Virus record (IMG/VR): IMGVR_UViG_3300034072_002247 | DNA: 64,000 nucleotides | DNA from: an uncultured virus (IMG/VR IMGVR_UViG_3300034072_002247) | Taxonomy: Duplodnaviria > Heunggongvirae > Uroviricota > Caudoviricetes | Reading direction: 5' to 3' (one strand) | Shown: positions 1,220 to 54,468 of the stretch, piece after piece | How the letters are laid out: every line of letters begins with the position of its first letter | Position numbering within the stretch: position 1 is the first letter of the stretch | Notes under the pieces: generated by a model | Seen by the model: only the letters and a program-made list of their open reading frames with translations | What the model was told of the DNA's origin: nothing | The model's database searches: none | Translations under genes and position numbers: made by a program

Positions 1220-1855
1220 ATGTATATTCAAAAAATAATAGAAAAATATAATCCAGAAGCAGCATTTAATTATGGTTCGTTTCTTTATAAAAATAAAAAA
1301 CCTAGTGATTATGATTTTATTATTGTTACTGATAAAGATTATTTTCAAGAATCATTTGAGTTAGAAGGTGTTAAATTTGAAGTTACTAATTATAAAAAAG
1401 AACAATTTTTAGATCTTTTGAAAAAACATGAAATAGCAATTCTTGAGTGTATATTTATAGAGTCTGATAAACATATGTCAGCAGAAATTAAAAATTACTT
1501 TGATAATTTTAAAATAGAAAAAGAACAACTAAGAGAAAGCTTATCTTCAAAAAGCTCTAATAGTTATGTAAAAGCTAAAAAAAAGTTGATAATTGAAGAA
1601 GATTTTGACTTAAATGTTTCATTAAAATCATTATGGCATTCTTTTAGAATTTTAAAATTTGGAATAGATATCGCCAAAAATGGCAATATAAATCCTGAAT
1701 CTTGTAATAATCTTTATGAACAAATTAAAATGGATTATATTGTTTTTGGTAATGATTGGGATAAAATACATAAAAAATATAAACCAATATATAATGATCT
1801 AGCATCAGAATTTAAATTAATATGTCCAAAGAAAAATAAAATTATTCTTCAATAA
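1220..1855 (+). CDS. Pol-beta-superfamily nucleotidyltransferase
   Basis: N-terminal GS...SDYD motif (YGSFLY...SDYDFIIV). Confidence 0.75.
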   Translation: MYIQKIIEKYNPEAAFNYGSFLYKNKKPSDYDFIIVTDKDYFQESFELEGVKFEVTNYKKEQFLDLLKKHEIAILECIFIESDKHMSAEIKNYFDNFKIEKEQLRESLSSKSSNSYVKAKKKLIIEEDFDLNVSLKSLWHSFRILKFGIDIAKNGNINPESCNNLYEQIKMDYIVFGNDWDKIHKKYKPIYNDLASEFKLICPKKNKIILQ

Positions 1856-2555
1856 ATTTAAATATATATTCTGATCTTATTGCTAATATTGCAATCAAAA
1901 TTAAATAAACTTCAAAATCATAATGTGAATATTTTTCTATAAAATAGTCTACAAAATTATAAAAATTATTTAAAATTAATTCTTTTTGCTTTTCTGATTC
2001 ATTTCCATATAATACTAATGATTCTATATATTCCATTTTTTCGAAGTTATTCATATGAGCTAAACAGCCAAGTAAAAAAGTTATTCTATATTTATCTTGA
2101 GGTGCAAAATCTCCAATTTCATATAATACACTGTCACAATGTTCATTATTATATTCTTTTACTTGAATATTTCTTTTATTTAGAAGATAAATATGAGATC
2201 TAATTAATGCGGTGCAAAATTCTCCTAAATAAGAAAATTCAATATCACTTTTCTTTACAGGAACTTTAATATGATCTAAAAGTTCATCAATTTCAAATAA
2301 TACTAAATTTCTGTAATTGTTTTCTTTATTTTTTAAAATTGAATTAATATAATCATAAAAATATTTTGTTGGATTTCCATTAATTTGTTTTCTTAAAATT
2401 TTTTCATTAAAGTATAAAAACATACGAGTATTAATTATACCACCAGCGATAGGAGCCATAAATTCTATTGGAGTAATTCCAGCAACATTTTTAATTACTT
2501 GTTCTTGTATTCCAATTTGTTTAACTATCTCATTTATATTAATAGAATTTTCCAT
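1842..2555 (-). CDS. hypothetical protein
   Basis: 237-aa ORF with AAGGAG SD. Confidence 0.65.
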   Translation of the reverse strand: MENSININEIVKQIGIQEQVIKNVAGITPIEFMAPIAGGIINTRMFLYFNEKILRKQINGNPTKYFYDYINSILKNKENNYRNLVLFEIDELLDHIKVPVKKSDIEFSYLGEFCTALIRSHIYLLNKRNIQVKEYNNEHCDSVLYEIGDFAPQDKYRITFLLGCLAHMNNFEKMEYIESLVLYGNESEKQKELILNNFYNFVDYFIEKYSHYDFEVYLILIAILAIRSEYIFKFIEE

Positions 2556-2677
2556 ACATACTCCTTTTTAGTGGAATTATATTTCATAAAAAAAAAACTG
2601 TCAATTTATATTTAATCTACCATAAAATTTTTTTTATGTTATAATTATATTATATATAAATTAGAGGATATTAAAAG

Positions 2678-5035
2678 ATGAGAGTTGTTTATTTTTTATC
2701 AGGAATGCCAGGAACTGGAAAAAGTACATTTATTAACAAGAATGAATTAGAAGCATTAACTATTTCATTAGACACACTTAGAAATATTTATTCAGGTTTA
2801 CAAACTGATTATATAGGAAATATTGTTTTATCCCAAGATAAAAATGATTATGTATATGCTAAATTTTTAGAAGCACTTAAATTTAGATTACAATTAGGTG
2901 GTAAAATTATTATAGATAATTTAAACCCAAAAAATAAAGACATTAAAGAAGTTGTTGAAATCTTAAATCAATATGACTATGATTATAAAGTTGTTCAATT
3001 TAAATTGGAAGATTTAAATTTTTATTTAGAAAGAAATAAGCAAAGAAGTAAATATAAAAGTATTCCAGAAGAAACTATAAAAAATATTTATAAACTATTT
3101 CAAGAAAGAGATTTTCCAAAAGATAAAATAATAACTCCTGAAGAAGCTATTAAAGAAATAAATGCCTCTCCTGAAGATTTACTTGAAGATGTTAGTCATT
3201 ATAAGAAAATTCACTTTATAGGTGATTTACAGGGTTGTTTTTATCCAATCTATAATTACTTAAAAACAAATGGAATAAAAGATGATGAACTTTATGTATT
3301 CTTAGGCGATTATATTGATAGAGGTATTGAAAATGATAAATGTTTAGAATTTGTTTTAAGCAATATACATAAGAAAAATTTTATATTTATAATGGGTAAC
3401 CATGAAAAACATTTATATAATTATAGCAATAATTTATTAAAGCCGCCAACTGAATTTATGTTGCAAACTTTGCCACAGTTGAAGCAGGCTAACTTCTCAA
3501 ATGATAAAATGAAAGAAGTTTATAGAAATCTTCATTTATTCAAATTTTTAAAACATAATGATAAAAAAATATTTGTATCACATGCGGGATTAATTACTAT
3601 TCCAGATAGACCTAATATATTAAATTTTGATGAATATATGAAAGGGCATGGTAGTTATGCATTTAATGTTGATGCTGCATTCCAAGAAAAAAATCAAACT
3701 AATGAATGGTATCAAGTTCACGGACATAGAAATAAATATAAATTAGATTTTAATAGTTATACAAAAAGCTTTGCGTTAGAAGCTGATGTAGAAAATGGTG
3801 GTAACTTACCTATTTTAAGACTTGATTCTAATGGTTTTGATGGGGTTTATATACATAATAAAATATTTAATAGAGAGTTAATAATGAAAAGAGAAAAAGA
3901 ACAAAATATGTTTTTAACAAAAGTTATAAATAGTAGTGTAGGTGAATTTTTAACAAGTAGAATTAATTATGATAAAAATGGATTAGAAATTATTAATGAA
4001 CTAAGAAAAAATGATCTTATTAGAGAAAAAACATTTGAAGATCTTCCTCATATATCTTCATTCAATTTCAAAAAACAAGCATTTTTTGATAAGAGATTTG
4101 ATGATGAATTAGTTATCCATGCAAGAGGATTATTCTTTAATAATTTAACAGGTGAAATTGTTGCTCGTGGTTTTGAAAAATTCTTTAATATTAATGAAAG
4201 AGGAATAGAGTCAGCTAAAATTGAGAATATTGAAAGAACATTCAAAATGCCAGTAACACTTTATGAGAAAGAAAATGGATTTTTAGGTTTAATTGGTTAT
4301 GATTCAAGTAATCATTCATTATTATATGCATCTAAAAGTGATATTGGTGGCGAATTTTCTCAATATCTTGAAAATATTGCTAAAACACAATTTAGTTCTG
4401 GAGAATTAGAATATTTAAAAATATTTGCTAACAAACATAATGTCAACTTTATATTTGAGGTTAATGATCCTATAAATGATCCACATATTATAAAATATGA
4501 AAAACCACATTTAGTTTTATTAAGTGTAGTAAAAAGAGAATTAAGATATTCTGAAATGTCTTATGACCACTTATTAGAATTTGCGAAAGAGTTCAAAGAC
4601 TTACCAGTTAAGAAAAAATTAGTACAAATTAACAATTTTAAATCTTTTATGGGCTTCTATAATTCAGTAAGTAAAGAAAGTGCATTAACTACAAAGAGAC
4701 AATTAGAAGGTTATGTTGTTCAAGATAATGATCTAAATATGGTTAAAATAAAACTACCTTTCTATAACTTCTGGAAATGTATGCGTGGTTTTATAGATCA
4801 GATGAATAATGCTGAAGATAAAAACAAAACATTTGAAATTACAAATACGGTTAACAACCATTTCTTAATTAATGATTCAGATAAAGAATCTGCTATTAAG
4901 TTTTTAGAATATGTTAAATCAATTCCAAGAGAAAACAGAGAAAGAGATATCATATCTTTAAGAGATGATTTCTTAAATAAAAATGATAATCAAAATAAGG
5001 TTGTTTTAGAAAAGAAAAATAAATTAAAAATATAA
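2678..5035 (+). CDS. Pnkp-like RNA repair fusion: P-loop kinase + calcineurin-like phosphoesterase + Rnl1-like RNA ligase
   Basis: GMPGTGKS Walker A; GDLQG, GDYIDRG, GNHE, HGH phosphoesterase motifs; ARGFEKFFN, EKENG, FIFE, EGYV, KIK ligase motifs. Confidence 0.85.
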   Translation: MRVVYFLSGMPGTGKSTFINKNELEALTISLDTLRNIYSGLQTDYIGNIVLSQDKNDYVYAKFLEALKFRLQLGGKIIIDNLNPKNKDIKEVVEILNQYDYDYKVVQFKLEDLNFYLERNKQRSKYKSIPEETIKNIYKLFQERDFPKDKIITPEEAIKEINASPEDLLEDVSHYKKIHFIGDLQGCFYPIYNYLKTNGIKDDELYVFLGDYIDRGIENDKCLEFVLSNIHKKNFIFIMGNHEKHLYNYSNNLLKPPTEFMLQTLPQLKQANFSNDKMKEVYRNLHLFKFLKHNDKKIFVSHAGLITIPDRPNILNFDEYMKGHGSYAFNVDAAFQEKNQTNEWYQVHGHRNKYKLDFNSYTKSFALEADVENGGNLPILRLDSNGFDGVYIHNKIFNRELIMKREKEQNMFLTKVINSSVGEFLTSRINYDKNGLEIINELRKNDLIREKTFEDLPHISSFNFKKQAFFDKRFDDELVIHARGLFFNNLTGEIVARGFEKFFNINERGIESAKIENIERTFKMPVTLYEKENGFLGLIGYDSSNHSLLYASKSDIGGEFSQYLENIAKTQFSSGELEYLKIFANKHNVNFIFEVNDPINDPHIIKYEKPHLVLLSVVKRELRYSEMSYDHLLEFAKEFKDLPVKKKLVQINNFKSFMGFYNSVSKESALTTKRQLEGYVVQDNDLNMVKIKLPFYNFWKCMRGFIDQMNNAEDKNKTFEITNTVNNHFLINDSDKESAIKFLEYVKSIPRENRERDIISLRDDFLNKNDNQNKVVLEKKNKLKI

Positions 5036-7360: not shown

Positions 7361-7386
7361 AAAAAGTCCTTTATGGGACTTTTTTT
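7361..7386. terminator. bidirectional intrinsic terminator
   Basis: AAAAGTCC-TTTAT-GGGACTTTT between convergent genes. Confidence 0.75.
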
Positions 7387-7546
7387 ATATATCTTGTTTT
7401 CTAAGTTTCGCTGGATTAAATGAATCTTTTCCTTCTCCACGTTTCATCTTAGCTTTTTTATCTTCTACTACTTTTGTTGTGCAGCCTACTTCATTCATAT
7501 ATTTAGCAACAAAATTTCTAATGCTATTGTCTGTTTTATTTTTCAT
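7385..7546 (-). CDS. small basic protein, possibly ArfA-like
   Basis: AGAGGA SD before ATG at 7546 (53 aa); DNSIRNFVAK...KVVEDKK...KRGEGK pattern. Confidence 0.5.
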   Translation of the reverse strand: MKNKTDNSIRNFVAKYMNEVGCTTKVVEDKKAKMKRGEGKDSFNPAKLRKQDI

Positions 7547-7646
7547 GATTAATTCCTCTATTTTTATAAATTTTATCATAAAAATAGTATCTTTACAAAT
7601 ATTTTAATAAATGTTATAATCATTCTTTAACAAAAAGGAGAGTATC

Positions 7647-8084
7647 ATGACATTGAAACAAACAATTCAAGCAGAAAAAATTAAAGCAATGAAAGATAAA
7701 AACAAAGAACGTAATGAGGTTCTTTCTTTAATTATGGCTGAAATTAAACAAATTGAAGTTGACACAAGAAATACGGAATTATCTCAGGAGCAAGTTGAAT
7801 CTATTCTTAAAAAAATGGTAAAGACTAGAGAAGAGTCTTCAAAGATTTTTAAAGTAAACGGTAGAGAAGATCTTGCAGCAAAAGAAGAATTCCAATTATC
7901 AATTATTTTTGAATTCTTACCAAAACAACTTACTTCTGAGGAAGTTGATGCCATTATTAATAAAGTAATGTCTCAAGTAGAAGAAAAAACTATTAAAACT
8001 CTTATGCCTTTACTAAAGAAAGAGTTAGATGGTAAAGCTAATATGAGAGAAGTTCAAGAAAAAATTAAAAAGCTATTAAATTAA
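7647..8084 (+). CDS. yqeY: GatB/YqeY domain protein
   Basis: KAMKDK...IKQIEVD...R.ES...GREDLA.KE...FLPKQL signature. Confidence 0.9.
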   Translation: MTLKQTIQAEKIKAMKDKNKERNEVLSLIMAEIKQIEVDTRNTELSQEQVESILKKMVKTREESSKIFKVNGREDLAAKEEFQLSIIFEFLPKQLTSEEVDAIINKVMSQVEEKTIKTLMPLLKKELDGKANMREVQEKIKKLLN

Positions 8085-14789: not shown

Positions 14790-15665
14790 TTATCTTTTTT
14801 CAATAAACATTCCGCAAGAAGCTTTAACGTCAAAACCGACTTTAGGAACAATTCTAATATTTTCTGGTTTCAATAATTCAGTTAAAATTTCAGTATTTCT
14901 ATTAATAGTTATTTCATCAGATTCTTCACCATATTTTAAAGAGTATGGATTATATCTTACAATATTTATATTAACTTTTAAGCCTATTTCATTAATTGCA
15001 TTTGCAATATTTACCATATCTTCTTCTTTATCGTTTTCACCTTTTATAAAAGCAAAATGAATTTTAGGAATCTTTCCATTGTAATCTTGCCATTCTTTTA
15101 ATAGTTCTAAACTTCTTTGATACGGCAATGCTTTAGCAAGCCATTTCTTTCTAAACTTTTCGTCGGTACTGTAAATTGAATAATAAATTTCAGGATATGT
15201 TCTTGGGAATATATTAATTAAACTTTTATTTCCCAAACTATTTGGCATAATTGTTGAAATTAAATATTTAGCATTTAAATTTCTTTCATAAGCTAATTTT
15301 TTTAAATTAGAAAATAACTCTTCATTATTGTTTAATACAATAGGATTATTTAATGGTTCTCCACGAGCCATAAAATTATAGTGTACTAATTTTGCTGGAT
15401 TATTTAATTGATCGTAATAATCATACACTGATTTTGCTTGATTTATAAAATCTTCTAAAGTAGCATTTTCAAGATTGTTTTGACCTGTCGCTGTTAAATG
15501 ACACATTCTACAAGCTTGATCACAACCAGATTGAGAAGAAACATAAATAATAAAATAATCATCTTCTCTTCTTACAAATCTAGATTCAAAATAACCTATT
15601 TTATTTGCATCGTATACAAAATTAACTGATTGATCTATCTTGCTTTTCATAATTAAATTGTTCAT
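14790..15665 (-). CDS. short RlmN/Cfr-like radical SAM RNA methyltransferase
   Basis: SSQSGCDQACRMC (CxxxCxxC), FMARGEP, C-terminal ASCG; lacks the RlmN N-terminal helical domain. Confidence 0.8.
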   Translation of the reverse strand: MNNLIMKSKIDQSVNFVYDANKIGYFESRFVRREDDYFIIYVSSQSGCDQACRMCHLTATGQNNLENATLEDFINQAKSVYDYYDQLNNPAKLVHYNFMARGEPLNNPIVLNNNEELFSNLKKLAYERNLNAKYLISTIMPNSLGNKSLINIFPRTYPEIYYSIYSTDEKFRKKWLAKALPYQRSLELLKEWQDYNGKIPKIHFAFIKGENDKEEDMVNIANAINEIGLKVNINIVRYNPYSLKYGEESDEITINRNTEILTELLKPENIRIVPKVGFDVKASCGMFIEKR

Positions 15666-16366: not shown

Positions 16367-17038
16367 ATGGAACTTAAACTAACAGATAATCAAATTATAT
16401 CTTTAAAAAATGCCATAGAAAACATATTACTTTTTGAAGACTTAAAAATAAAAGAAGCCTTTGATTATCATTTAAAACATATCAAAACTACACCTGAAAA
16501 TTTACAAGAAATAGAATCTTTAATAATAGAAGGACAAAAAGAAGCAGAAGACTTATTTGACTGGAGTGATACTCCTGAATATTTTTTAGGTTTAAAAAAC
16601 TTATTGAATAAACTAAATAATAATGATTTCACTTTTGATGAAAACCAAATGTATAATTTAAGAAATGTAACTGATATATATTCAAGATTAGGTCAAGGAC
16701 ATATAAAAGCATTTAGAGATGTTTATTCAAATATTAAGAATGTTCATATTGGTGGATTTGTTTCTGTAACAAATATATTTGATAAAGCAAGTAAAATTAC
16801 ACCAAAAATAGCAATTCAAAATCTAGAAGAAGAATATAAAGTTAATTATGATATTTATCAAGTTATAAGAAACCATCTTGCTTGGAAAAGAAAGCCTGAA
16901 GGTGGTGTACATGTTGATTTTGATAAACCTTTAAAATATTCTAAAGAACCATTACCTTATATTAATGTTGAAATTCCAGAAGAAATACAATATAAATCTA
17001 AAAGAAGTAATAAAAATAAAGGTAAAATAAAGATATAA
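16367..17038 (+). CDS. hypothetical protein
   Basis: 223-aa ORF, basic C-terminal tail. Confidence 0.7.
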   Translation: MELKLTDNQIISLKNAIENILLFEDLKIKEAFDYHLKHIKTTPENLQEIESLIIEGQKEAEDLFDWSDTPEYFLGLKNLLNKLNNNDFTFDENQMYNLRNVTDIYSRLGQGHIKAFRDVYSNIKNVHIGGFVSVTNIFDKASKITPKIAIQNLEEEYKVNYDIYQVIRNHLAWKRKPEGGVHVDFDKPLKYSKEPLPYINVEIPEEIQYKSKRSNKNKGKIKI

Positions 17039-17055: not shown

Positions 17056-18183
17056 TTATATTTTATATTCTTCTACTAATTTAAAATATAATTCTTTAAT
17101 ATCTTCTTCAGTTGATTCAGTATTATCAAACTTTTGAATTCTACCAAAATGAGATTCAGATATTGCATTCTTAATAGAACTAATTTTTGAAGAATTAGAT
17201 TTCATATGTTTTATTCTATTGTCAGCATCATTTGTTTCTATATTTCTAAATGATTTTAATCTTAAATTTCTAACAGCAGAATCAGCATCTACAACAATTA
17301 CATGATTATTACAAATATTTAATAGATTTGCTTCAACTAACAATGCAGCATTAATTAAAATTATTCCTTTTTTATCTCTAAGTTCCTGTCTTAACAATAC
17401 CATTACAGGATCTTTAAAAATGTTATTCAAAAATTCTACATGCTCTTTAGAGTTTTCACTACCAAAAGCAATCTCAGCAATCTTTTTCTTATCAAGAGTA
17501 CCAAAATGTGAATTAATTTTTTCTCTAATAGATGCGTATGCTGGCTTTTCTTCTGTATATACTCTTTGTGCTAGTTTATCAAGTTCTATATTATGTACTA
17601 ATGGCATACTATCATTTTTTAGATTTTCTTCTTTGCTTATTCTAACTAGTTGTTCAGCAACATATGACTTACCAGAACCCATAATTCCAGTTATTCCATA
17701 AATTAATTGACTAGAAATTTTTCTTTCAAGTAATTTTTTAACTGGTAGAGGTACATATTCATGAATAAGTCCATTTTCTAATTGAATAGCTTTAACACTA
17801 CTTGAGCTTACATGAGAAAATTGAGACTTTGAGAATAAGAAAAATGTATCAATATTCATTTGAGAACTATTTATTTGATCTAAACTTTTTTCGAATTCAA
17901 AATCTGAAGCATTTCTTATGCCTCTAATGATAACATTTGCATTTTGCTCAAAAGCAAAATCAACAAGAAGTCCATCAAAAAACATTACTTCAACATTATG
18001 AAGAAATGCTAATGATTCTTTTGCAACTTTATATTTTTCTTCAGTTGTTAGTAAGTATTTTTTACTAGAATTAATACCTAATGCAACAATTAATTTATCA
18101 AATGATTGTGCAGCCCTTTTAATAATGTCGATATGACCGTAAGTGATTGGGTCACCAGATAATGCGTAAACTGCTATGCTCAT
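17056..18183 (-). CDS. coaD: fused phosphopantetheine adenylyltransferase (CoaD) and dephospho-CoA kinase (CoaE)
   Basis: DPITYGHIDII, IIRGIR...DFEFE, VSSSSVK; then YGITGIMGSGKS Walker A and ALLVE. Confidence 0.85.
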   Translation of the reverse strand: MSIAVYALSGDPITYGHIDIIKRAAQSFDKLIVALGINSSKKYLLTTEEKYKVAKESLAFLHNVEVMFFDGLLVDFAFEQNANVIIRGIRNASDFEFEKSLDQINSSQMNIDTFFLFSKSQFSHVSSSSVKAIQLENGLIHEYVPLPVKKLLERKISSQLIYGITGIMGSGKSYVAEQLVRISKEENLKNDSMPLVHNIELDKLAQRVYTEEKPAYASIREKINSHFGTLDKKKIAEIAFGSENSKEHVEFLNNIFKDPVMVLLRQELRDKKGIILINAALLVEANLLNICNNHVIVVDADSAVRNLRLKSFRNIETNDADNRIKHMKSNSSKISSIKNAISESHFGRIQKFDNTESTEEDIKELYFKLVEEYKI

Positions 18184-18255
18184 TTTGAACTCCTATGTGT
18201 TTTAGAAATTAAAAAATGCTCTTTAAAAGAGCATAATAAAAATAAAAGTTATAAA

Positions 18256-18429
18256 TTAGTGTGGTTTTTGAATTCTTTTAGTTGCTTTTTTATGACCATG
18301 ATTATCTTTTGATTCTTCTGGACTTTTCAAAGCTTTTGTTATTTTTTCTTTATTTTCAAAAAACTCATCATCCTCAAGTTCATCTAGATGGTCTAGATCA
18401 ATATCTTTTGGACTAATCTTATTACTCAT
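18256..18429 (-). CDS. small hypothetical protein (57 aa), not in ORF track
   Basis: AGAGGA SD; MSNKISPKDIDLDHLDELEDDEFF...KKATKRIQKPH. Confidence 0.6.
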   Translation of the reverse strand: MSNKISPKDIDLDHLDELEDDEFFENKEKITKALKSPEESKDNHGHKKATKRIQKPH

Positions 18430-18518
18430 ATAATTTTCCTCTTTTAATTTCTTATATAAACAAATATTTTGTTTATGTAATTATATTAACATGATTAAAA
18501 AAAATTTTCAATATAATA

Positions 18519-19604
18519 TTAAAATAGTTTTTTCATAAAACTTTTTATTATAGACACTTCTTTAGGTGTTTCTTTAGATGATAAATTCATATTTTTATTT
18601 AGTTTTTCATCTATTAATATTTTTATTTTTTCTCGTTCTTTTAAATTATCTTCATTTATAAGCTTTATTATTTCAAAAGCTTTATTCCAGTCTTCTACTT
18701 TGTTAATAACTGTATTTATAATATTTCTATTTTCAAATTTTGATCCTTTCATAAGGAGGGTATCTGCAAAAATATCATTATTTAAATCTATATTTGGAAT
18801 TCTTCTTACACTATCAATTTCTATTATATTATTATTTAATTTGGCTTTATTTTTGATTTCTTTAAATATTCTTGTTGCTACATTTTGTTTTCTAAAATCT
18901 TCTCTAACTTTAATATAATTGATTGATTTTATTTTTGAAGAGTTTATATAGTTGCTATTTTGAATAGTAGCAAAACCTATTATTTCTTTTTCACTATGAG
19001 CAACTGTTATATAGTCAGATTCTTTTGCTAATGGTAATAATAAATCTAAATCTATCTCTGCCAAATGATTTTCAAGGTCTTTTTCATTTTTTAACCCTAT
19101 TAAACTTATTATTTTATCTGGATTTTTTTTATAATTTATAGTTTCTATATTTATTATATTTTTTTCTTTTAAATTTAAAGATCTTTTTATTATATCTTTT
19201 TCAAATATTATTTTATATTCTTTTATTTCTTTTAATTTTGAAATTATTAAATTATATTCATCTGAAACTTTATATCCGTTTATAGTTTGAAATTTATTGT
19301 TTTCATCTAAATTTTCTTTAAATATACCATCTAACTTATTTCTTCCATTTATATTTATTTGAATTAAATTTAAAAAACCATTTTCGTTTTTTGTCCTTAT
19401 TAATTCTACTTTATATTTATTTTCAAAATAATATGAATTTAAAATATCTTTTATTAATCCATTTAATATATAACTATACTTACTTACTTCTTCTTTTTTT
19501 ATTTCATAAACAGACTTAATTTCAGAATCAAAAACTTCTAAAACATCTTTTTTTATTTTTTCTAAATTCATTATTTTTTTTATTGTTATAATATTATTAT
19601 ACAT
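18519..19604 (-). CDS. GNAT-fold protein
   Basis: IIGFA...YIKVREDFRKQNVATRIF (motif A); start probably at the second Met. Confidence 0.65.
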   Translation of the reverse strand: MYNNIITIKKIMNLEKIKKDVLEVFDSEIKSVYEIKKEEVSKYSYILNGLIKDILNSYYFENKYKVELIRTKNENGFLNLIQININGRNKLDGIFKENLDENNKFQTINGYKVSDEYNLIISKLKEIKEYKIIFEKDIIKRSLNLKEKNIINIETINYKKNPDKIISLIGLKNEKDLENHLAEIDLDLLLPLAKESDYITVAHSEKEIIGFATIQNSNYINSSKIKSINYIKVREDFRKQNVATRIFKEIKNKAKLNNNIIEIDSVRRIPNIDLNNDIFADTLLMKGSKFENRNIINTVINKVEDWNKAFEIIKLINEDNLKEREKIKILIDEKLNKNMNLSSKETPKEVSIIKSFMKKLF

Positions 19605-34300: not shown

Positions 34301-34303
34301 AAT

Positions 34304-34449: not shown

Positions 34450-34455
34450 TAAAAC

Positions 34456-34531
34456 GGGGTGATAGCTCAGTTGGGAGAGCGTCTGAATGGCATTCAGAAG
34501 GTCGTGGGTTCGAACCCCATTCATTCCACCA
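34456..34531 (+). tRNA. tRNA-Ala(GGC)
   Basis: canonical cloverleaf, G3:U70, TCTGA-AT-GGC-AT-TCAGA, ACCA. Confidence 0.95.
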
Positions 34532-34543
34532 GATTTAAGATAT

Positions 34544-34618
34544 GGGCTTATAGTTTAATTGGGAAAATATCTGCCTTGCACGCAGAAGTTCAGAGTTCGA
34601 TTCTCTGTAGGTCCACCA
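34544..34618 (+). tRNA. tRNA-Ala(TGC)
   Basis: G3:U70, TCTGC-CT-TGC-AC-GCAGA, ACCA. Confidence 0.95.
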
Positions 34619-34623
34619 AATAT

Positions 34624-34700
34624 GTTCGCGTAGCTCAGTTGGATAGAGCAGCCGCCTTCTAAGCGGCTGGTCGTGGGTTCGAATCCCTCCGTGAACGCCA
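34624..34700 (+). tRNA. tRNA-Arg(TCT)
   Basis: GCCGC-CT-TCT-AA-GCGGC, GCCA end. Confidence 0.95.
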
Positions 34701-34702
34701 AG

Positions 34703-34787
34703 TTAAGTTAAAAATATAGGGTCAGAACCTATCTGCTGAATTTTATTAAATTTGGTGGTAATGTAACGGTAAACATATTTAACTTAA
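34703..34787 (+). ncRNA. circularly permuted tRNA-like RNA (T-arm, closed acceptor stem, D-arm order; YrlA-like module)
   Basis: closing stem TTAAGTTAAA/TTTAACTTAA; ATAGG-GTCAGAA-CCTAT; CTGCTGAATTT-TATT-AAATTTGGTGG; TA; ATGT-AACGGTAA-ACAT. Confidence 0.7.
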
Positions 34788-34792
34788 ATTAT

Positions 34793-34869
34793 GGGTCTGT
34801 AGTTCAGTTGGGAGAACGCTTCGCTTGCACCGAAGATGTCATGGGTTCGAATCCCATCAGTATCCACCA
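34793..34869 (+). tRNA. tRNA-Ala(TGC) with a bulged base in the acceptor stem
   Basis: GGGTCTG/CAG-T-ATCC, CTTCG-CT-TGC-AC-CGAAG, ACCA. Confidence 0.9.
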
Positions 34870-34874
34870 GTTAT

Positions 34875-34950
34875 GGGGTTTTAGTTTAATATTGATAAAA
34901 CGCCGGGGTTAAACTCGGAAATGCAAGGTAAACACTTGTAGACTCCACCA
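34875..34950 (+). tRNA. Ala-identity tRNA-like RNA with 6-nt anticodon loop
   Basis: GGGGTTT/AGACTCC with G3:U70 and ACCA; CCGGG-GTTAAA-CTCGG; non-canonical T-loop GTAAACA. Confidence 0.7.
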
Positions 34951-34960
34951 ATTTATATAT

Positions 34961-35035
34961 GGGCTGATAGTTTAATTGGGAAAATCCCTGCCTTGCACGC
35001 AGGAGTTCAGGGTTCGATTCCCTGTTGGTCCACCA
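34961..35035 (+). tRNA. tRNA-Ala(TGC)
   Basis: G3:U70, CCTGC-CT-TGC-AC-GCAGG, ACCA. Confidence 0.95.
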
Positions 35036-35047
35036 GATTTTTTATAT

Positions 35048-35123
35048 GTCCTCTTAGCTCAACTGGAAGAGCAATGACCTTCTAAGTCATAGGTTGTAGG
35101 TTCGAATCCTACAGGGGATGCCA
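35048..35123 (+). tRNA. tRNA-Arg(TCT)
   Basis: ATGAC-CT-TCT-AA-GTCAT, GCCA end. Confidence 0.95.
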
Positions 35124-35128
35124 AATAT

Positions 35129-35203
35129 GGGGATTTTAGTTTAACCGGGAAAACGGCTTGCAAGAGTGAGCAGTCTGTAGTTCAAGTCTACATATCTCCA
35201 CCA
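35129..35203 (+). tRNA. Ala-identity tRNA-like RNA with collapsed anticodon loop
   Basis: GGGGAT/ATCTCC with G3:U70 and ACCA; GCTTGC-AAGA-GTGAGC in place of the anticodon arm; intact D and T arms. Confidence 0.7.
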
Positions 35204-35209
35204 TATAAA

Positions 35210-35284
35210 GGTTCTCTAGCATAATGGTTAATGCACTCCGCTCATAACGGAATGATTCAGGTTCGATTCCTGGGAGAACCACCA
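35210..35284 (+). tRNA. tRNA with CAT anticodon (probably Ile2, possibly Met)
   Basis: GGTTCTC/GAGAACC, TCCG-CT-CAT-AA-CGGA, ACCA; no initiator features. Confidence 0.85.
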
Positions 35285-35290
35285 AATTAC

Positions 35291-35367
35291 GGGACTTTAG
35301 CTCAGTTGGTTAGAGCATCCGACTCATAATCGGCAGGTCGTAGGTTCAAGTCCTACAAGTCCCACCA
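35291..35367 (+). tRNA. tRNA-Ile2(CAT), reads ATA after lysidine modification
   Basis: CCGA-CT-CAT-AA-TCGG anticodon arm as in enterobacterial tRNA-Ile2, GGGACTT/AAGTCCC, ACCA. Confidence 0.9.
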
Positions 35368-35385
35368 TATTTTTTGGAGATATTT

Positions 35386-35919
35386 ATGAAATTTCCTTAT
35401 ATTCCACCACTTTCAATAGATGAATTCTTAAAGTTAGATTCTGATAATATAACTATTCTTGAAAATAAAGAATTAATTTTAAAAATAGAAAAAAGATCTT
35501 TATATATTTTTGAAAGAATATCTCAAATTTTAAATTTAAATTTTAGTTGGGTAACTTTTGATACTATTGATTTAGAAAGACATAAAAATGAAAATAATGG
35601 AACTTTTTCTTATAATAAATATAAAGATTATATTTCTTTCTATAGTGATCTTGAAGAATTAGAGCACTTAAACAAAATTATTGATGTTTATTACAATAAA
35701 TTTCCTACTAAATTTATATATGAAAATTTTGAGAATGAAGTTTTAGAAACTATATCTAAAATTAAAAAATCAATTGAAGAAAAAAAAGAAAGAAACAAAA
35801 AAAAGAGAATAAAAGAAAAACAAAATAAAATTGAAAGAGATAAAATTAGACCAGAAGTTATTGCTTCTATAAAATCCAAATTAACAGAACTTGAACTTTC
35901 TTTTATTGATTTTAAATAA
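35386..35919 (+). CDS. hypothetical protein inside the tRNA array
   Basis: GGAG SD before ATG at 35386; C-terminal coiled coil. Confidence 0.7.
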   Translation: MKFPYIPPLSIDEFLKLDSDNITILENKELILKIEKRSLYIFERISQILNLNFSWVTFDTIDLERHKNENNGTFSYNKYKDYISFYSDLEELEHLNKIIDVYYNKFPTKFIYENFENEVLETISKIKKSIEEKKERNKKKRIKEKQNKIERDKIRPEVIASIKSKLTELELSFIDFK

Positions 35920-35928
35920 ATACGTTAT

Positions 35929-36004
35929 GTCCATATAGCTCAACAGGAAAGAGCAACTGCCTCCTAAGCGGAAGATATAGGTTCGAGTCCTATTATGGAT
36001 GCCA
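35929..36004 (+). tRNA. tRNA-Arg(CCT)
   Basis: CTGC-CT-CCT-AA-GCGG, GTCCATA/TATGGAT, GCCA end. Confidence 0.9.
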
Positions 36005-39570: not shown

Positions 39571-41499
39571 ATGAAAGATAACAATATTGTTTCTAAATTA
39601 CAAAAAGAACAAGCAGTAGAAAATTTTAAAAAATGGTTTGGAAATAGTCAAATAATAAATAGTTCTGGAGAACCAGAAATTGTTTATACAGGTACTTTAT
39701 CCGATTTCACTGTTTTTGATTACTCAAAATCTAACAATCAAAATTTTTTCGGTAAAGGTTTTTATTTTAGTAGTTCTATTGAAGATGTTAACTCAAATTA
39801 CGCAACGGTAAAAGGGCCAGATTTTGAAATAAAATATGATAAAATTAAAGAAAACTTTTTCAGAATCATGGAAGGATATGATGAATTCAATAAAGAAGAT
39901 ATAGATTATTTTATATCTTTATCTAACAACAAATCTATTGAACAACCAATTTTGTCTGCTGTTCAAAAACTTTTAAGTTGTATAGATGAAGTTGAAGATT
40001 ACAGTGAGATGACAGAAGAAGAAATGGACTTAATAAGTACTAAATACATAAATGATAAACTATCAGTTGATAACCAAGGATTTATTATACCAGCATATAT
40101 AAAGATGGAAAACCCTTTAAGAGTTGATCATGACTTTTTAGAGAAAGAAGAAAAAATATCTGGTCAAGAATTTGAAAGAATTCTTTCTAAGTTTGAATCT
40201 TTATTTAATTTTGATAAATCAGCTTTATATAACGAGTTCTATCACCTTTTTTCAGATATAAATGAAGAATATTCTATTGAGTTTGATGAATTTGAAGAAA
40301 TAGCAGAAAATTTCAGACATTATATATTTGAAGAAGATGAAGATACATATGAAGAAAAATATTTAGAATTTATAAATTTTGCGAGAGATGTATTTGACTC
40401 AGATTACATTAATATAACATATGAACTAAATGGCTCTCTTATTGAATTTAAAGACAGATTTAAAAGAAAACTACAAGATTTGGGATTCTTTAATGAAGCA
40501 GACAATTTCGAATCTTTATTTTCTGAGAAATATTTAATTGAAGAAACTGTTTATGTTAGAGATATATTAAAAAATGAAGATATAGATATGTTAATAATGG
40601 ATCTATTTCCTATGGATAATCAATTTGATAATGATTGTTTCATATATAAAGGATTATGTGCAGCTATATTTCAAGAAATGGGTTATGATGGAATTATTCA
40701 AGAAGCATTTAAAGAGTTTAAAACAATGAAAAACATTTCAGAGGCTTATCATTATATTGTTTTTAACAGTAATAACATAAAAAGTGCTATAGGAAATAAT
40801 GGTGAATATTCTTTAACTGATAATGATATTAGATATAGAATTAATTATAGAATGCAAGAAGATTATCGTAAGAAAATTTCCGTCAATACTAAAGATTGCG
40901 AAAAAATAATTAAAGATATAAAAGAACAATATTCAAGTTCTCCAAATATTATTTTAATAAAAAATAAATTAGAAATTGATAAAGAACTTTTAAACCAGCA
41001 TAAAGATATTTTAAATAGCTCTGGATATTATTTAAAAGAAAAAAATTCTGTCTATATAATGCTAGAGAATATAACTGGAAGAAAAGACTTTATTAAGACT
41101 ATAGCTCATGAAATTTTTGGGCATATGAGTTTACAAGAAATTTTAAAAAATAACTATACACCATTTTTAAATAAAGTTTATGATTTTTATGATAAAAAAG
41201 GATTACTAGAAGAAGAGAAAAAACATTACTCTTCTATATATGGAAATAATTTTAACGACATAAATATTAAATCTAAAATTGCTGAAGAAAAAATGGCTAA
41301 TGTAATTGAAGAACAAGGTTTTAAAAATTTTCCACTTAAAAATGTAATTATAGGAGCAATAAAAAACTCTTTAAGAAAATTATTACCTAATATTCCATTT
41401 GGTAATAGTGATATAATTTATATTGCTCAACAAACTCATAATAATTTAAAGAAGAAAAATAAAAAGGAAAATAAAATAAAAAATAAAAACCGCTTTTAA
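39571..41499 (+). CDS. polyvalent protein: ART-PolyVal-like domain with acidic insert + zincin-like metallopeptidase
   Basis: NFKKWFG.S....GEP.IVY.GT, GKGFYFS, GYDGII, YIVF....IKSA.GNNG; AHEIFGH...EE. Confidence 0.7.
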   Translation: MKDNNIVSKLQKEQAVENFKKWFGNSQIINSSGEPEIVYTGTLSDFTVFDYSKSNNQNFFGKGFYFSSSIEDVNSNYATVKGPDFEIKYDKIKENFFRIMEGYDEFNKEDIDYFISLSNNKSIEQPILSAVQKLLSCIDEVEDYSEMTEEEMDLISTKYINDKLSVDNQGFIIPAYIKMENPLRVDHDFLEKEEKISGQEFERILSKFESLFNFDKSALYNEFYHLFSDINEEYSIEFDEFEEIAENFRHYIFEEDEDTYEEKYLEFINFARDVFDSDYINITYELNGSLIEFKDRFKRKLQDLGFFNEADNFESLFSEKYLIEETVYVRDILKNEDIDMLIMDLFPMDNQFDNDCFIYKGLCAAIFQEMGYDGIIQEAFKEFKTMKNISEAYHYIVFNSNNIKSAIGNNGEYSLTDNDIRYRINYRMQEDYRKKISVNTKDCEKIIKDIKEQYSSSPNIILIKNKLEIDKELLNQHKDILNSSGYYLKEKNSVYIMLENITGRKDFIKTIAHEIFGHMSLQEILKNNYTPFLNKVYDFYDKKGLLEEEKKHYSSIYGNNFNDINIKSKIAEEKMANVIEEQGFKNFPLKNVIIGAIKNSLRKLLPNIPFGNSDIIYIAQQTHNNLKKKNKKENKIKNKNRF

Positions 41500-47891: not shown

Positions 47892-48497
47892 TTAACTTAA
47901 AAGTTCAAACATTTTTAGATCATCTCCACATTTATTTTTTAGTCTATCTATCCAGGCTTGATTTTTAACTTTGCAGCGAATAATTTTATTTTTTAAAAAT
48001 GCTTTACCAATTACACCTTCAAATGTCATTCCAGAAAAATTACCTTCTTTTATTTCTTTCATAACAATTTGATTTAATCTAAATATGCCTAAAAATTCTG
48101 CCATATCTATATTATCAAAAGCCTTAATGTAATCTTTGGGTGGTAAATATCCTATTTTACCTATATGTGCATCTATTAATTTTACTTTAAAATTATCATT
48201 TTCTTCATGAAATCCTGCAAATGATTTATCTCCATAAAATTCAAAAAATAATGTACCATCCTGCCATTTATTTTTTTTAAAAATATCATATACTGCTTTT
48301 TCATTTTGCATTATTAAGTCTTTTGATAAATTTAAAATACCTGAATCATCAGACATCAACTTTTTTCTGGTTCCAAATTTATCAAATCCTTTTTTTAATG
48401 AGAATTCAACTCTTATATTGGAGCCATCTAATTTATCAAATAGATAATAATCTAAATCTTTTATAACTTCTTTATTAATACTTGGATACTGTTGCAT
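47892..48497 (-). CDS. small RNA-ligase-family nucleotidyltransferase (Rnl2-like)
   Basis: YPSI, DKLDGSN (motif I), FGTR, FFEFYG, FEGVI, KVKN. Confidence 0.75.
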   Translation of the reverse strand: MQQYPSINKEVIKDLDYYLFDKLDGSNIRVEFSLKKGFDKFGTRKKLMSDDSGILNLSKDLIMQNEKAVYDIFKKNKWQDGTLFFEFYGDKSFAGFHEENDNFKVKLIDAHIGKIGYLPPKDYIKAFDNIDMAEFLGIFRLNQIVMKEIKEGNFSGMTFEGVIGKAFLKNKIIRCKVKNQAWIDRLKNKCGDDLKMFELLS

Positions 48498-48539: not shown

Positions 48540-48623
48540 TTAAATTGATATTTTAACTTTTTGTTTATTAAATTTTTTAAGTTCTTTTTTAAAACATTTT
48601 TCAACAATTTTTTGGACTTTCAT
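48540..48623 (-). CDS. 27-aa Lys-rich uORF upstream of the RNA ligase
   Basis: AGGAGA SD; MKVQKIVEKCFKKELKKFNKQKVKISI. Confidence 0.55.
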   Translation of the reverse strand: MKVQKIVEKCFKKELKKFNKQKVKISI

Positions 48624-51750: not shown

Positions 51751-51812
51751 TTTATAAATTTTATGTTTTTATTCATTATATCATATTTAAAAAAAATATT
51801 AAGGAGTATTTT

Positions 51813-52178
51813 TTGAATTTATTTAACAACTTAGACTCACATTTTTTTCCAACAATAATAAATGAAATCTTTGATTTTAAAATAGGCATAATTGCAAGAG
51901 ATAATTATGAAATTATACCTGATTTTATAATGTTTTTTTGCTTCTTAGATGAGTTCAATGAATTTGTTATTGATTTAAATGGAGTTCATGAATTTAAAAA
52001 ATACAAAGATGAAATATTAAATAATAACAAAGATTATTATATTATTAGTTGTAATGGAGAAATGATTAGAAACTTGCAAAAAAATAACATTCTTTCTAAC
52101 ATACCAAAAAATATTAAAAAAGATCTTATAGAAGAAGCAAAAAAAATTTTATTATCTTATGAAAACATTTTAAAATAA
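51813..52178 (+). CDS. hypothetical protein
   Basis: AAGGAG SD, TTG start. Confidence 0.6.
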   Translation: MNLFNNLDSHFFPTIINEIFDFKIGIIARDNYEIIPDFIMFFCFLDEFNEFVIDLNGVHEFKKYKDEILNNNKDYYIISCNGEMIRNLQKNNILSNIPKNIKKDLIEEAKKILLSYENILK

Positions 52179-52248
52179 CTATTGACATTTTATTTTTTTT
52201 ATTATATTATTTAATGTTAAATTTTAAAAATATCTAGGAGATAAAAAA

Positions 52249-54468
52249 ATGAATTATCAAGAAAATGTAATCTTATTGAATCGCAAGCAATCTATAGTAG
52301 TAAGCAATAATGGTAATGAAAATAACCATAATGCTGTTATGGCTATTATAGCAGAAATTGCTCAATTTGGTTATACACTTGATAAAAGTTTAATAGAAGC
52401 ATTGTCAAAACTTTCTTTGGAAGACTTAAAAGTTTATAAAGAATTCTTAGTTAAAGAACTTTCTTTTATTGTAGGTTCACATGTAAAATATGTGCCTTTA
52501 TTTATAAACTTTCCTAATAATCTTTTGGATACTGAATTTTTATATCAGAAAAAAATATTAGGTATAATTCAAAATCTTTTTAATTTAAATGATTCTGGTT
52601 CTGTATTAGCTTGTGGTCATTTTATTGATACTAGATTATTTAATTTAGATAATTACTCTTGCTGTCCTATATGTGAACAACAAGATGAAGAACTTTATTC
52701 AAAAGCTCTAGAATCTTTAGAACCTAAAGCTAAAACTTCTTTTGATGCTATTAGATTAAAAGTTATAAAATTAACTTCAGAAGATAGTTTATTTTCTATA
52801 TTTAAAAATCTATTGTCAGCTAATACTTCTATATCTGAAAATGATAAAGAAGTTATTTCTTATGTTGTTAAAAATTATAAAAATAGAATAGAAGAACTAT
52901 TACCAGAAAAAATTTCACAAAAAGAAATTATTGCATATTTATCTGGTTTATTAATGGTTCATGTTGATAATTATTTAGAGTTAATAAATAAATACAATAA
53001 AACAGCAGTTGATATCCTTAGATTAGCAGTTTCATTTTCTAATGGTGATATTTCATTAGCTGAAAAAACTAAATTTAAGCTATCAAACAAACAAAGAAAA
53101 CTAATTATGTCATTATTAAACAATGTTAATAATGCTGAAGTTGACATGTTAAGATATCGTGAAGAATTTTTAAGATTAGGTGAAGTTTTACATATAGGTT
53201 CATTTAAAAACAAATATAAAAACACTTATAAATCATTTCAGTTAATTAGAAATAATTCTAAAGATATAGAGACATTTTCTAAAAAAGTAGAATCTTTAAT
53301 AAAATCTTTAAAAGATTCTAAAAATAAAGATTTTATTGTACAACAACTTGTTAATATTTTATCTACAAGAGAAGGTGAATTTGCTCGTAAATTAGATTTA
53401 TTATTAAGAAATTCAAATAATAAATTTGATGTTGTTTCATCTTTTATTACTGTTATATCAAAAGTTAAGACTCCTATGTTATTAACTCTATTAAAGCATT
53501 TCCAGCATAGAAGTTTTAAAAAAGAATATCGTTCTTTCTTACCAAAAGGTAGCTTTGCTAAAATAAAATATTTAGAAGGAGATGATAGAGAAACTATTGA
53601 TATATTAGTTTGTAATGAAATAGTATCTAAAATAAGAGAAGAATTAATCACAAGATTTTCTAAGAAAGAATCTTTAGGTAATGTTTTATTATCAAAAGAA
53701 TTAATGGATATCATTATACCTAGCAGCCAAAGAAGTGCTACTAAGTCCTTATTGAATATACCTAGAGGTTCAAGAATTAAACTTGATAACAAACCATTTA
53801 TAAGACTTTATACTTATTGGAAACATCCTTCTGATGTCGATCTAACAGCTTGCTGCTATGATAAAGATCTTAAAAAAATAATGGATATATCTTATTATAA
53901 CTTAAGTGGTTTTGGTAAGAGTATTCATTCTGGAGATATCAGAAATGGTCGCCTTGGTGCTACTGAATTTATTGATCTAGATATAGAAGAGTTTAAGAGA
54001 AGAAAAATTAAATATGTTGGAGTATTAGTTTATTCTTATAGTGGAGAGAAATTCTCTGATATGGAATGCTTTGCTGGATTTATGGAAAAAGACTCCCCTG
54101 ATAGCAATCAATTTGATGCAACTCAGTTAGTTCATAAATTCAATATTAGTTCTCCTACAACTCAATGTATTCCTATGATGTTTGATATTGAAAACAATGA
54201 GTTTATATGGATGGATATTAGTGTTAAATGTGGTAATATTTACGCTAATGGTGTAAATACTAATAAACATGTTGTAGAAAAAATGAAATCAGTTTTAGAT
54301 TTTAAAAATCAAAAGTCTTCAATGTTTGACCTTTTAGAATTACATTCTTTAGGTAGAGCAACTAGAGTTGATTATGAAAAAGTAAAAGATGTTGAATACG
54401 ATACTGTATTTGATATTGAAATACTAAAAGATATAGATGTTATAATGTCAAAATACTTAGAATCTTGA
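52249..54468 (+). CDS. prokaryotic RING finger + helical (ROT/TROVE-like) repeats + C-terminal TerD-like domain
   Basis: CGH...YSCCPIC finger; TAVDILRLA...S.GD.SL, GEFARKLD.LLR; TerD-like DVDL, HSGDI, ATEFIDLD. Confidence 0.75.
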   Translation: MNYQENVILLNRKQSIVVSNNGNENNHNAVMAIIAEIAQFGYTLDKSLIEALSKLSLEDLKVYKEFLVKELSFIVGSHVKYVPLFINFPNNLLDTEFLYQKKILGIIQNLFNLNDSGSVLACGHFIDTRLFNLDNYSCCPICEQQDEELYSKALESLEPKAKTSFDAIRLKVIKLTSEDSLFSIFKNLLSANTSISENDKEVISYVVKNYKNRIEELLPEKISQKEIIAYLSGLLMVHVDNYLELINKYNKTAVDILRLAVSFSNGDISLAEKTKFKLSNKQRKLIMSLLNNVNNAEVDMLRYREEFLRLGEVLHIGSFKNKYKNTYKSFQLIRNNSKDIETFSKKVESLIKSLKDSKNKDFIVQQLVNILSTREGEFARKLDLLLRNSNNKFDVVSSFITVISKVKTPMLLTLLKHFQHRSFKKEYRSFLPKGSFAKIKYLEGDDRETIDILVCNEIVSKIREELITRFSKKESLGNVLLSKELMDIIIPSSQRSATKSLLNIPRGSRIKLDNKPFIRLYTYWKHPSDVDLTACCYDKDLKKIMDISYYNLSGFGKSIHSGDIRNGRLGATEFIDLDIEEFKRRKIKYVGVLVYSYSGEKFSDMECFAGFMEKDSPDSNQFDATQLVHKFNISSPTTQCIPMMFDIENNEFIWMDISVKCGNIYANGVNTNKHVVEKMKSVLDFKNQKSSMFDLLELHSLGRATRVDYEKVKDVEYDTVFDIEILKDIDVIMSKYLES

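Follow-up and report, generated by a model that had tools for sequence, protein, structure and literature searches.

We analyzed a 64-kb stretch of DNA from an uncultured virus of the Caudoviricetes (IMG/VR record IMGVR_UViG_3300034072_002247), referred to here as the window, in which the genes for a PTH2 peptidyl-tRNA hydrolase and an HD-fold protein each begin with a start codon followed almost at once by an in-frame stop codon. The G+C content of the window ranged from 18 to 36%, with approximately 22% overall. Coding was dense, and the leaders that were read showed sigma-70-like promoters, Shine-Dalgarno (SD) sites, and hairpin terminators. Many of the products matched phage families (PHROG), among them a ClpB-like ATPase (phrog_4871, 1.8e-236) and DprA-like, Sir2, and NUDIX products. 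No near-identical cultured phage was found for the window. Three related contigs were used for comparison: G001, an IMG/VR contig of 181 kb (31% G+C, classed as a provirus, 58% complete), which was syntenic with positions 1-50 kb of the window and whose proteins were approximately 30-70% identical; G002, which was 65% complete; and G003, a complete sequence of 543 kb. General stop-codon recoding was ruled out in the window and in G001-G003, since open frames made up 87-91% of the DNA under code 11. The two genes and their 5' ends were located as follows.

25242-25700, minus strand: PTH2 peptidyl-tRNA hydrolase (PF01981, 5.1e-19; 69 bits against a cut-off of 23)
25701-25709, minus strand: mini-open reading frame (mini-ORF) ATG TTG TAA with the SD sequence AAGGAG, in frame with PTH2, from reading of the sequence
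23117-23692, minus strand: HD-fold protein, from a structure model, with no sequence-family match
23693-23701, minus strand: mini-ORF ATG TTG TAA with a strong SD sequence, in frame with the HD gene, from reading of the sequence

The 5' ends of PTH2 and HD were almost identical base for base (SD-ATG TTG TAA ATT GAT), with the frame continuing past the stop. The ORF finder placed the start of PTH2 at the ATG at 25571. Homologs aligned from 10 residues upstream of this ATG, inside the conserved domain, and the upstream frame comprised 43 open codons back to the TAA, none of them ATG, GTG, or TTG. The true PTH2 frame begins right after the mini-ORF stop. A scan for an SD sequence, an ATG, at most 8 codons, a stop, and then at least 60 open codons returned three sites in the window, two of which, the only ones followed by ATT, were PTH2 and HD; exactly two sites were returned in G001, and these were their orthologs. 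The 5' end of the G001 HD ortholog reads SD-ATG ACT ATG TAG ATT. Both G001 genes use TAG where both window genes use TAA, which suggests a coordinated switch together with an unseen UUA tRNA. A hop or frameshift at the mini-ORF was ruled out because the conserved protein lies in the same frame as the mini-ORF.

The same arrangement was found in a wide range of relatives. Among 30 distinct IMG/VR loci of the PTH2 clade, an ATG ORF of at most 12 codons preceded the homologous region in frame 0 in 20 loci, compared with 2 and 5 in the other two frames; the corresponding numbers for 49 distinct HD loci were 26, compared with 6 and 11. This strong frame-0 bias makes chance an unlikely source of the in-frame stop. 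Six further distinct loci carried a mini-ORF and stop ahead of a PTH2-HD fusion. Thirteen of the 30 PTH2 loci had no ATG, GTG, or TTG in the stretch from the stop to the conserved core. The stop was TAG in 44 and TGA in 2 of 46 IMG/VR cases (TAA in none), and the base after it was A in 25, G in 17, C in 4, and T in none. Such a next-base preference is the classical context of efficient nonsense suppression in E. coli. The PTH2 layout was present in the loci L001-L003 and in the cultured phages Atu_ph07 and Phosso, and the HD layout in the cultured phages XacN1, Xoo-sp13, and RsoM2USA; the annotated starts in these five phages are later ATG codons, which in Atu_ph07, Phosso, XacN1, and Xoo-sp13 lie downstream of the conserved N-terminus. 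The separate PTH2 gene of XacN1 (ORF295) and the PTH2 gene of Xoo-sp13 were tried as stop-bearing genes and rejected, as both have plain starts. In fHe-Yen9-04, GAP32, CBB, and XbC2 (L168, L170-L172), the HD gene has a normal start, and its codon 47 is a conserved TAG flanked by conserved protein sequence on either side; in these genomes the gene is annotated as two "hypothetical proteins" split at the TAG.

The HD protein gave no match to a Pfam HD family at E up to 5 and no PDB sequence match. Its AF2 model showed an HD fold with a pLDDT of 96.5, in agreement with the earlier note on this DNA, made from the sequence alone, which had listed an HD hydrolase. The best structural match was the HD body of class II CCA-adding enzymes (PDB 3WFO-3WFS), namely residues 248-446 of the tRNA nucleotidyltransferase 3WFR/3WFO (Z 15.2, root-mean-square deviation 3.0 Å over 158 residues, 15% identity); other HD proteins matched at Z 8-11, and, as a point against kinship, the match is to an all-helical domain, where a Z of approximately 13 is possible between unrelated proteins. 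Residues H27, H80-D81, H97, H101, D125, and H129 were invariant in 27 homologs. The phage HD protein stands alone: it is without the nucleotidyltransferase head and so is not itself a class II CCA-adding enzyme. The minimal nucleotidyltransferase of the window (1220-1855) is a separate gene, 21 kb from HD, and has no CCA-enzyme match.

PTH2 and HD were repeatedly found joined. They are fused in the order PTH2-HD in six distinct IMG/VR loci, including the record of Tenacibaculum phage pT24, and in the opposite order, HD-PTH2, in XacN1 and Xoo-sp13. In G002 the two genes are adjacent and form one operon under a single mini-ORF, while the window and G001 keep them apart, each gene with its own stop device. 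We interpret PTH2 and the CCA-enzyme-type HD protein as a functional pair. Their folds point to a probable role in cleaning the 3' ends of tRNA, in which PTH2 would strip acyl or peptidyl groups (deacylation) and the HD protein would strip phosphates (dephosphorylation).

Comparison of the stops with phage-encoded tRNAs revealed matching anticodons in three genomes for which both the stop and the suppressor are known. The PTH2 stop of Atu_ph07 is TGA and matches its UCA suppressor, the stop of the XacN1 HD-PTH2 gene is TAG and matches its CUA suppressors, and the stop in G002 is TAG, with a CTA tRNA 0.9 kb upstream. A frame-0 TAG and a CTA tRNA occurred together in 13 distinct loci. The available part of the Atu_ph07 report describes a single suppressor tRNA (UCA), for which the authors could only cite the many UGA codons in phage and host (PMC6102473); that of the XacN1 report describes two CUA suppressor tRNAs, whose target the authors searched for and did not find (PMC5852040). 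From the sequences, their conservation, the frame bias, and the stop-anticodon matches, all of which were observed directly, we infer that the stop is read through. Ribosomes would load at the strong SD-ATG of the PTH2 or HD mRNA and meet the in-frame stop after a few codons, and the enzyme would be made only if the stop were decoded by a phage-encoded suppressor tRNA of matching anticodon. The result would be a tRNA-dependent gate or timer with a logic like that of bldA, discussed below. For the two TAA codons of the window, a UUA tRNA is predicted elsewhere in the genome.

A device of another type was found ahead of the arginyl-tRNA synthetase (ArgRS) gene.

31506-33134, plus strand: arginyl-tRNA synthetase (PF00750, tRNA-synt_1d, 2.6e-66; PF05746, DALR, 1.4e-11)
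31440-31460, plus strand: upstream ORF (uORF) of six codons (MKLRRF) with the adjacent arginine codons AGA CGA, from the ArgRS leader sequence

The leader contains, in order, a promoter-like TTTACA-17-TATAAT, the uORF (SD-ATG AAG CTC AGA CGA TTC TAA), and the ArgRS ribosome-binding site. The end and stop of the uORF and the sequence after it pair with the SD sequence and start of ArgRS (-22 kcal/mol, z -4.38, matched by 0 of 200 shuffles). L150, a locus on a 1.86-Mb metagenome contig whose ArgRS is 47% identical, has a nine-codon uORF that ends Leu-Arg-Arg-Leu with the same AGA CGA, and its leader pairs in a similar way (z -3.43, equaled by 0 of 200 shuffles). Close ArgRS relatives were not found when viral and metagenome contigs were scanned with the single protein; the loci came from alignment-based scans only. 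In the proposed translational attenuation, a shortage of Arg-tRNA would stall the ribosome on the uORF and so free the ArgRS ribosome-binding site. The leader fits such stall-dependent unmasking when Arg-tRNA is short, and it is a candidate attenuator predicted from two sequences.

The window also contains other genes with predicted roles in RNA repair and translation.

2678-5035, plus strand: Pnkp-Rnl1 fusion of polynucleotide kinase, phosphoesterase, and Rnl1-type RNA ligase, for the repair of tRNA breaks (Pfam, phrog_8238)
7647-8084, plus strand: YqeY/GatB-like protein (PF09424, 8.8e-33; phrog_1460)
1220-1855, plus strand: minimal Pol-beta-type nucleotidyltransferase (sub-cut-off Pfam, phrog_388, Atlas)
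14790-15665, minus strand: radical-SAM enzyme, distantly RlmN/Cfr-like (TIGR00048; phrog_27142, 9.8e-109)
47892-48497, minus strand: small RNA_ligase (PF09414)-like protein of 201 residues (sub-cut-off match)

The Pnkp-Rnl1 protein (785 residues) showed AAA_33 at residues 6-141 (1.1e-10), Metallophos at 177-359 (4.4e-15), and RNA_lig_T4_1 at 482-696 (3e-36), and aligned with phrog_8238 over positions 1-771 (1.2e-157). This architecture is common to SPbeta-like and Twort-like phages, and 101 of 232 matching records covered at least 80% of the protein; with 60.7 bits against 750, it falls outside the curated bacterial Pnkp equivalog TIGR04075. The nucleotidyltransferase scored just below the cut-offs of PF18765 (Polbeta, 26.2 bits against 26.9) and PF01909 (20.5 against 21), matched Atlas viral NTP_transf_2/Polbeta/RlaP clusters at 0.97, and had orthologs in G001 (60% identity) and G003 (34%). 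The radical-SAM enzyme resembles the RlmN/Cfr family by sequence and does not pass as a member: its scores were 53.6 against 290 for TIGR00048 (profile positions 77-344 of 355), 28.2 against 29.5 for Radical_SAM, and 44-48 bits for the Cfr models, whose cut-offs are 468-550. All 30 matching phage records covered at least 80% of it, and it was 46-50% identical to proteins of phiKZ-like phages. The small ligase, here called Rnl2-like, scored 20.6 bits against a PF09414 cut-off of 27, matched phrog_548 (6.8e-6) and Atlas PF09414 clusters (0.98), and was 72% identical to its G001 ortholog. Upstream of it lies a 27-codon lysine-rich ORF with an SD sequence (48540-48623, minus strand), with a 28-codon counterpart in the same place in G001. 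A conserved hairpin over the stop of this ORF was considered and rejected, as the 11-bp hairpin had z -2.45 in the window but z -1.19, which is not significant, in G001.

The 3' part of the window carries tRNA genes, tRNA-like elements, a RING protein, and a structural gene.

34224-36004, plus strand: array of 10 ARAGORN tRNAs, comprising Ala(UGC) x4, Ala(GGC), Arg(UCU) x2, Met(CAU) x2, and Arg(CCU)
34875-34947, plus strand: tRNA-like element whose acceptor is of the Ala type (G3:U70, encoded CCA) and whose anticodon arm is closed (Rfam tRNA, 36.2 bits; no ARAGORN call)
35130-35199, plus strand: second degenerate element of the tRNA-Ala family (Rfam tRNA, 31.4 bits in a focused search; alignment)
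52249-54468, plus strand: protein of 739 residues with RING, helical TROVE-like, and TerD-like parts, of the MXAN_6230/SCO0854 family (NF041916, structure model)
55214-58762: virion structural or tail protein (phage-family match)

G001 carries a syntenic tRNA array. At 17614-19500 of the G001 locus L012 there is an array of 13 tRNA genes, of which 11 are tRNA-Leu genes with five anticodons, and one gives a four-base anticodon call. Both tRNA-like elements of the window retain the acceptor and D arms of the adjacent tRNA-Ala genes, including G3:U70 and the encoded CCA, and their anticodon arms are closed or aberrant. In the G001 ortholog of the element at 34875, the anticodon-stem hairpin is kept through compensatory changes and is capped by a GAAA tetraloop. 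That element was considered as an ochre suppressor, which was ruled out by its 6-nt loop and by the tetraloop in the G001 ortholog. Matching tRNA-like elements lie at 16509-16583 and 16693-16767 of L016. In G002, a phage-borne tmRNA gene was found (L021, 10682-11024; tag peptide ANDNFFATAIAA), on the contig that also bears the suppressor tRNA and the PTH2-HD operon.

The RING protein scored 376.8 bits against NF041916, below the cut-off of 600. Its AF2 model (pLDDT 89) matched the TerD fold of 3ibz, 2qz7, and 2kxt (E 1.4e-4 to 4.8e-4; target TM-score 0.67-0.72), and weaker matches were obtained with phage Ro60 (9l5y_B, E 2.4e-3 over 365 columns, target TM-score 0.35) and a Trove domain (9kop, E 1.3e-2). 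The protein itself had no Pfam TerD or Pfam TROVE match; three of its homologs carry PF02342, and two are named as TerD family by NCBI. PDB sequence searches gave no useful match for the HD, nucleotidyltransferase, Rnl2-like, or RING proteins. A possible role of the tRNA-like elements is that of partners to the TROVE-like protein; alternatively, they may act as decoys.

Other observations concerned the setting of these genes. An ArgRS identical to that of the window is recorded on a contig of 1,042,066 bp; therefore, the window derives from a sequence of approximately 1 Mb with approximately 22% G+C. This makes the element a phage that far exceeds all cultured ones in size or, alternatively, a small AT-rich chromosome with a huge prophage-like region. 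Genes for a fused CoaD (pantetheine-phosphate adenylyltransferase, 154.6 bits) and CoaE (dephospho-CoA kinase; 17056-18183, minus strand; 68% identity in G001, 32% in G003) and for a 642-residue protein with an N-terminal ART-PolyVal ADP-ribosyltransferase domain (39571-41499, plus strand; 6.6e-17; G001 counterpart 34%) were also present. A 64-residue DUF7230 protein (7385-7579, minus strand; 28.4 bits, cut-off 27; G001 counterpart 66%) is encoded divergently from YqeY, and its gene shares a bidirectional terminator with the gene upstream. We interpret the window as an accessory arm of a huge-phage-like element, with a loose set of genes for tRNA repair, tRNA supply, and translation support.

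With moderate confidence, we interpret the in-frame stop as suppressor-tRNA-gated expression of PTH2 and HD, with the ArgRS attenuator as a second device and without a single regulon. Several observations weigh against this interpretation. No tRNA with a UUA, CUA, or UCA anticodon was found in the 64-kb window or in G001 (58% complete), the TAA of the window was seen in 0 of the 46 IMG/VR cases, and the complete G003 has TAG but only an aberrant tRNA with a loop containing CUUAA. Ordinary starts occur in E. coli phage A4, XacN1 ORF295, ME3, Arash, and the G002 HD gene. The closeness of CTA tRNAs to these genes (up to 2.5 kb from HD at 25 of 60 loci, up to 1.5 kb from PTH2 at 4 of 30) speaks for the interpretation, but as raw counts, uncorrected for the frequency of such tRNAs near arbitrary genes of tRNA-rich phages. 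The codon right after the stop was ATT in 15 of the 46 cases and in both genes of the window and of G001, which also fits termination and restart at an adjacent weak start (AUU), with a low PTH2 and HD output that depends on IF3 or ribosome recycling and requires no suppressor tRNA. Given this frequent ATT, restart stays a live rival; post-stop ATA, ATC, ATG, GTT, CTG, CTT, and GTG also occur, the stop of L106 being followed by ATG, and the missing suppressor tRNA in the window and G001 agrees with it. On the other hand, the codons after the stop include GAA in 8 cases as well as AAC, AAT, AAA, GAC, GAT, CAA, ACT, AGT, and GCT, which are not start codons, and in four phages the TAG lies within the protein, at codon 47. 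Together with the preference for TAG, these codons argue for read-through over restart. Restart also leaves the match between stop and anticodon in three genomes unexplained, and we consider it unlikely. The in-frame stops could instead reflect decay or error (pseudogenes or misassembly) and the ArgRS uORF chance in AT-rich DNA, so that the window would be an ordinary accessory arm. Short ORFs are indeed common, with 48 SD-ATG ORFs of at most 25 codons in the window, the annotators of the cultured phages used an internal ATG or two genes, and the ArgRS uORF was found in one of six relatives at 44-47% identity and was missing in the other five, which also counts against the attenuator. However, the position of the stop is constant across proteins that are 30-70% identical, with intact and conserved frames downstream, the frame bias is strong, and the arrangement is present in independently sequenced cultured phages as well as metagenomes. 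The two ArgRS leaders also share AGA CGA, and neither fold was equaled by any shuffle. Decay or chance is therefore very improbable as an explanation.

The earlier note had proposed a single distributed counter-defence regulon, in which each gene would carry a cis sensor of the lesion it repairs; in this reading, the PTH2 mini-ORF would sense peptidyl-tRNA drop-off in the manner of the lambda bar minigene. The genes do share a theme that is real for this type of element, namely the repair and replacement of tRNAs and the rescue of ribosomes; strong-SD two-codon ORFs precede PTH2 and HD, short ORFs are a classical source of peptidyl-tRNA drop-off, and the arginine-codon uORF would be a fitting matched sensor at ArgRS. 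The gene assignments also largely stood: the Pnkp-ligase fusion, PTH2, YqeY, ArgRS, and the tRNA array with its tRNA-like elements were identified firmly by Pfam, PHROG, ARAGORN, and Rfam; the nucleotidyltransferase, second RNA ligase, and RlmN-like enzyme were supported at scores below curated cut-offs; and the RING/TROVE-like/TerD call was upheld by its sub-cut-off NF041916 score and the model matches, of which TROVE was the weaker. In contrast, the ArfA-like peptide, for which the note gave no coordinates, was not recovered: 13 small ORFs, drawn from 34 listed and the short annotated ones, were compared with ArfA and gave no match at E up to 5-10. The genes are spread over 53 kb on both strands amid unrelated genes (dCMP deaminase, MazG-like, ClpB-like, CoaD-CoaE, Sir2, OmpA, NUDIX, ART, RNase H, and others), and their co-occurrence in the three related contigs was patchy. 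G001 has the nucleotidyltransferase, Pnkp-Rnl1, YqeY, radical-SAM, PTH2, HD, and Rnl2-like genes and the tRNA array, and is the only one of the three with Pnkp-Rnl1, YqeY, and the Rnl2-like gene; G002 has only PTH2 and HD of this set; G003 has PTH2, the nucleotidyltransferase, and a distant radical-SAM homolog; and all three lack ArgRS and the RING protein, so that PTH2 alone was common to them. The leaders did not bear out a common control either. Ribosome-read cis switches, proposed for at least four units in three mechanistic types, were found in three units (PTH2, HD, and ArgRS) and in two types, with no fourth unit and no third type. The leaders of the nucleotidyltransferase, Pnkp-Rnl1, YqeY, ClpB, radical-SAM, CoaDE, and Sir2 genes had no uORF common to the window and G001. 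Rfam at gathering score gave tRNA matches only in the window, with no T-box, riboswitch, or leader, and no cis-regulatory family matched the window leaders at E up to 1, the sub-threshold hits overlying tRNA genes only. The wiring of remedy to lesion fits the ArgRS leader alone, on thin comparative evidence; the stop of PTH2 and HD tracks the suppressor anticodon (TAG in 44 of 46 cases), unlike a peptidyl-tRNA sensor, and in four phages it lies at codon 47 instead of closing a mini-ORF. Compared with the bar minigene, which has a similar two-codon SD ORF, the ORF here varies from 1 to 11 codons. The absence of a protein regulator was not established, because a tandem HTH_37 protein is conserved directly after Pnkp-Rnl1 in both the window and G001. 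One regulon with matched sensors is thus quite improbable; the listed genes do not form one regulon, and the broad repair-regulon idea adds little to published work.

The suppressor-gated interpretation can be extended tentatively, although we regard the extension as doubtful in its entirety. The orphan suppressor tRNA may chiefly decode the early PTH2/HD stop, so that the output would report functional phage tRNA against host release factors, as a translation-state sensor or infection timer. In the present element, the circuit would have moved to UAA with an unseen UUA tRNA, and the Ala-type mimics and the RING/TROVE-like/TerD protein would form a particle like that of Ro60 and Y RNA in the same repair pathway.

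Parts of this arrangement resemble known systems. In Streptomyces, the supply of the bldA tRNA-Leu(UUA) gates the few genes that contain TTA, a rare sense codon; the logic is alike, whereas the codon here is a stop, for which release factors compete. In recoded phages (codes 4 and 15; Lak megaphages), a phage suppressor tRNA reads in-frame stops, possibly as a timing device, and the late genes contain hundreds of such stops. The phages considered here use the standard code, and a single stop lies in one or two genes, at codon 2-12 or 47. The gene for RF2 (prfB) is autoregulated through an early in-frame UGA and a +1 frameshift, which senses RF2. Common to both is a translation-factor gene whose early in-frame stop ties its expression to the state of termination, but the frame here is unchanged, and all three stops occur across the phages. 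In the ermC/cat and pheST leaders, a short uORF enriched in the relevant codons precedes a ribosome-binding site that is masked by pairing and becomes accessible when a ribosome stalls. The ArgRS leader has the same layout, seen in two sequences, and no argS leader of this kind was found in Rfam. T4 Pnkp and Rnl1 repair tRNA cut by the PrrC anticodon nuclease; the same kinase, phosphoesterase, and Rnl1 ligase activities are predicted here, fused in one protein with a calcineurin-type phosphoesterase.

The closest precedent for the gene content is found in jumbo phages, in which tRNAs, Rnl1/Rnl2, kinase-phosphatase, PTH2 ribosome rescue, and TROVE proteins have been described as counter-defence (Iyer, Anantharaman, Krishnan, Burroughs, and Aravind 2021, PMC7824862). 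As far as the available part of that article goes, its sets contain the same parts, namely tRNA arrays, Rnl1/Rnl2-type ligases, kinase-phosphatase, nucleotidyltransferases, and archaeo-eukaryotic PTH2, as well as TROVE proteins with tRNA-like partners and Sir2, NUDIX, and ART genes nearby. The term "stop codon" is absent from the article, as are an in-frame stop, the PTH2-HD pairing, and a link to suppressor tRNAs, and the window adds an ArgRS with its own leader to the sets described there. A literature search, with most subscription journals outside its reach, found no description of the in-frame stop, its suppressor link, or an argS leader peptide. The conserved stop-codon gate on the PTH2/HD pair, tied to phage suppressor tRNAs, is apparently undescribed.

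The suppressor tRNAs of many standard-code jumbo phages lack a known purpose, and the PTH2/HD stop would provide a concrete target that is testable in cultured phages. Its recognition corrects mis-annotated starts and split genes in several published genomes and brings PTH2 together with an uncharacterised HD protein in a single probable unit of tRNA-end repair. If real, the arginine-codon leader would be a previously unlisted aminoacyl-tRNA-synthetase attenuator. If the stop does act as proposed, the translation controls known from phages would be joined by a switch gated by a tRNA.

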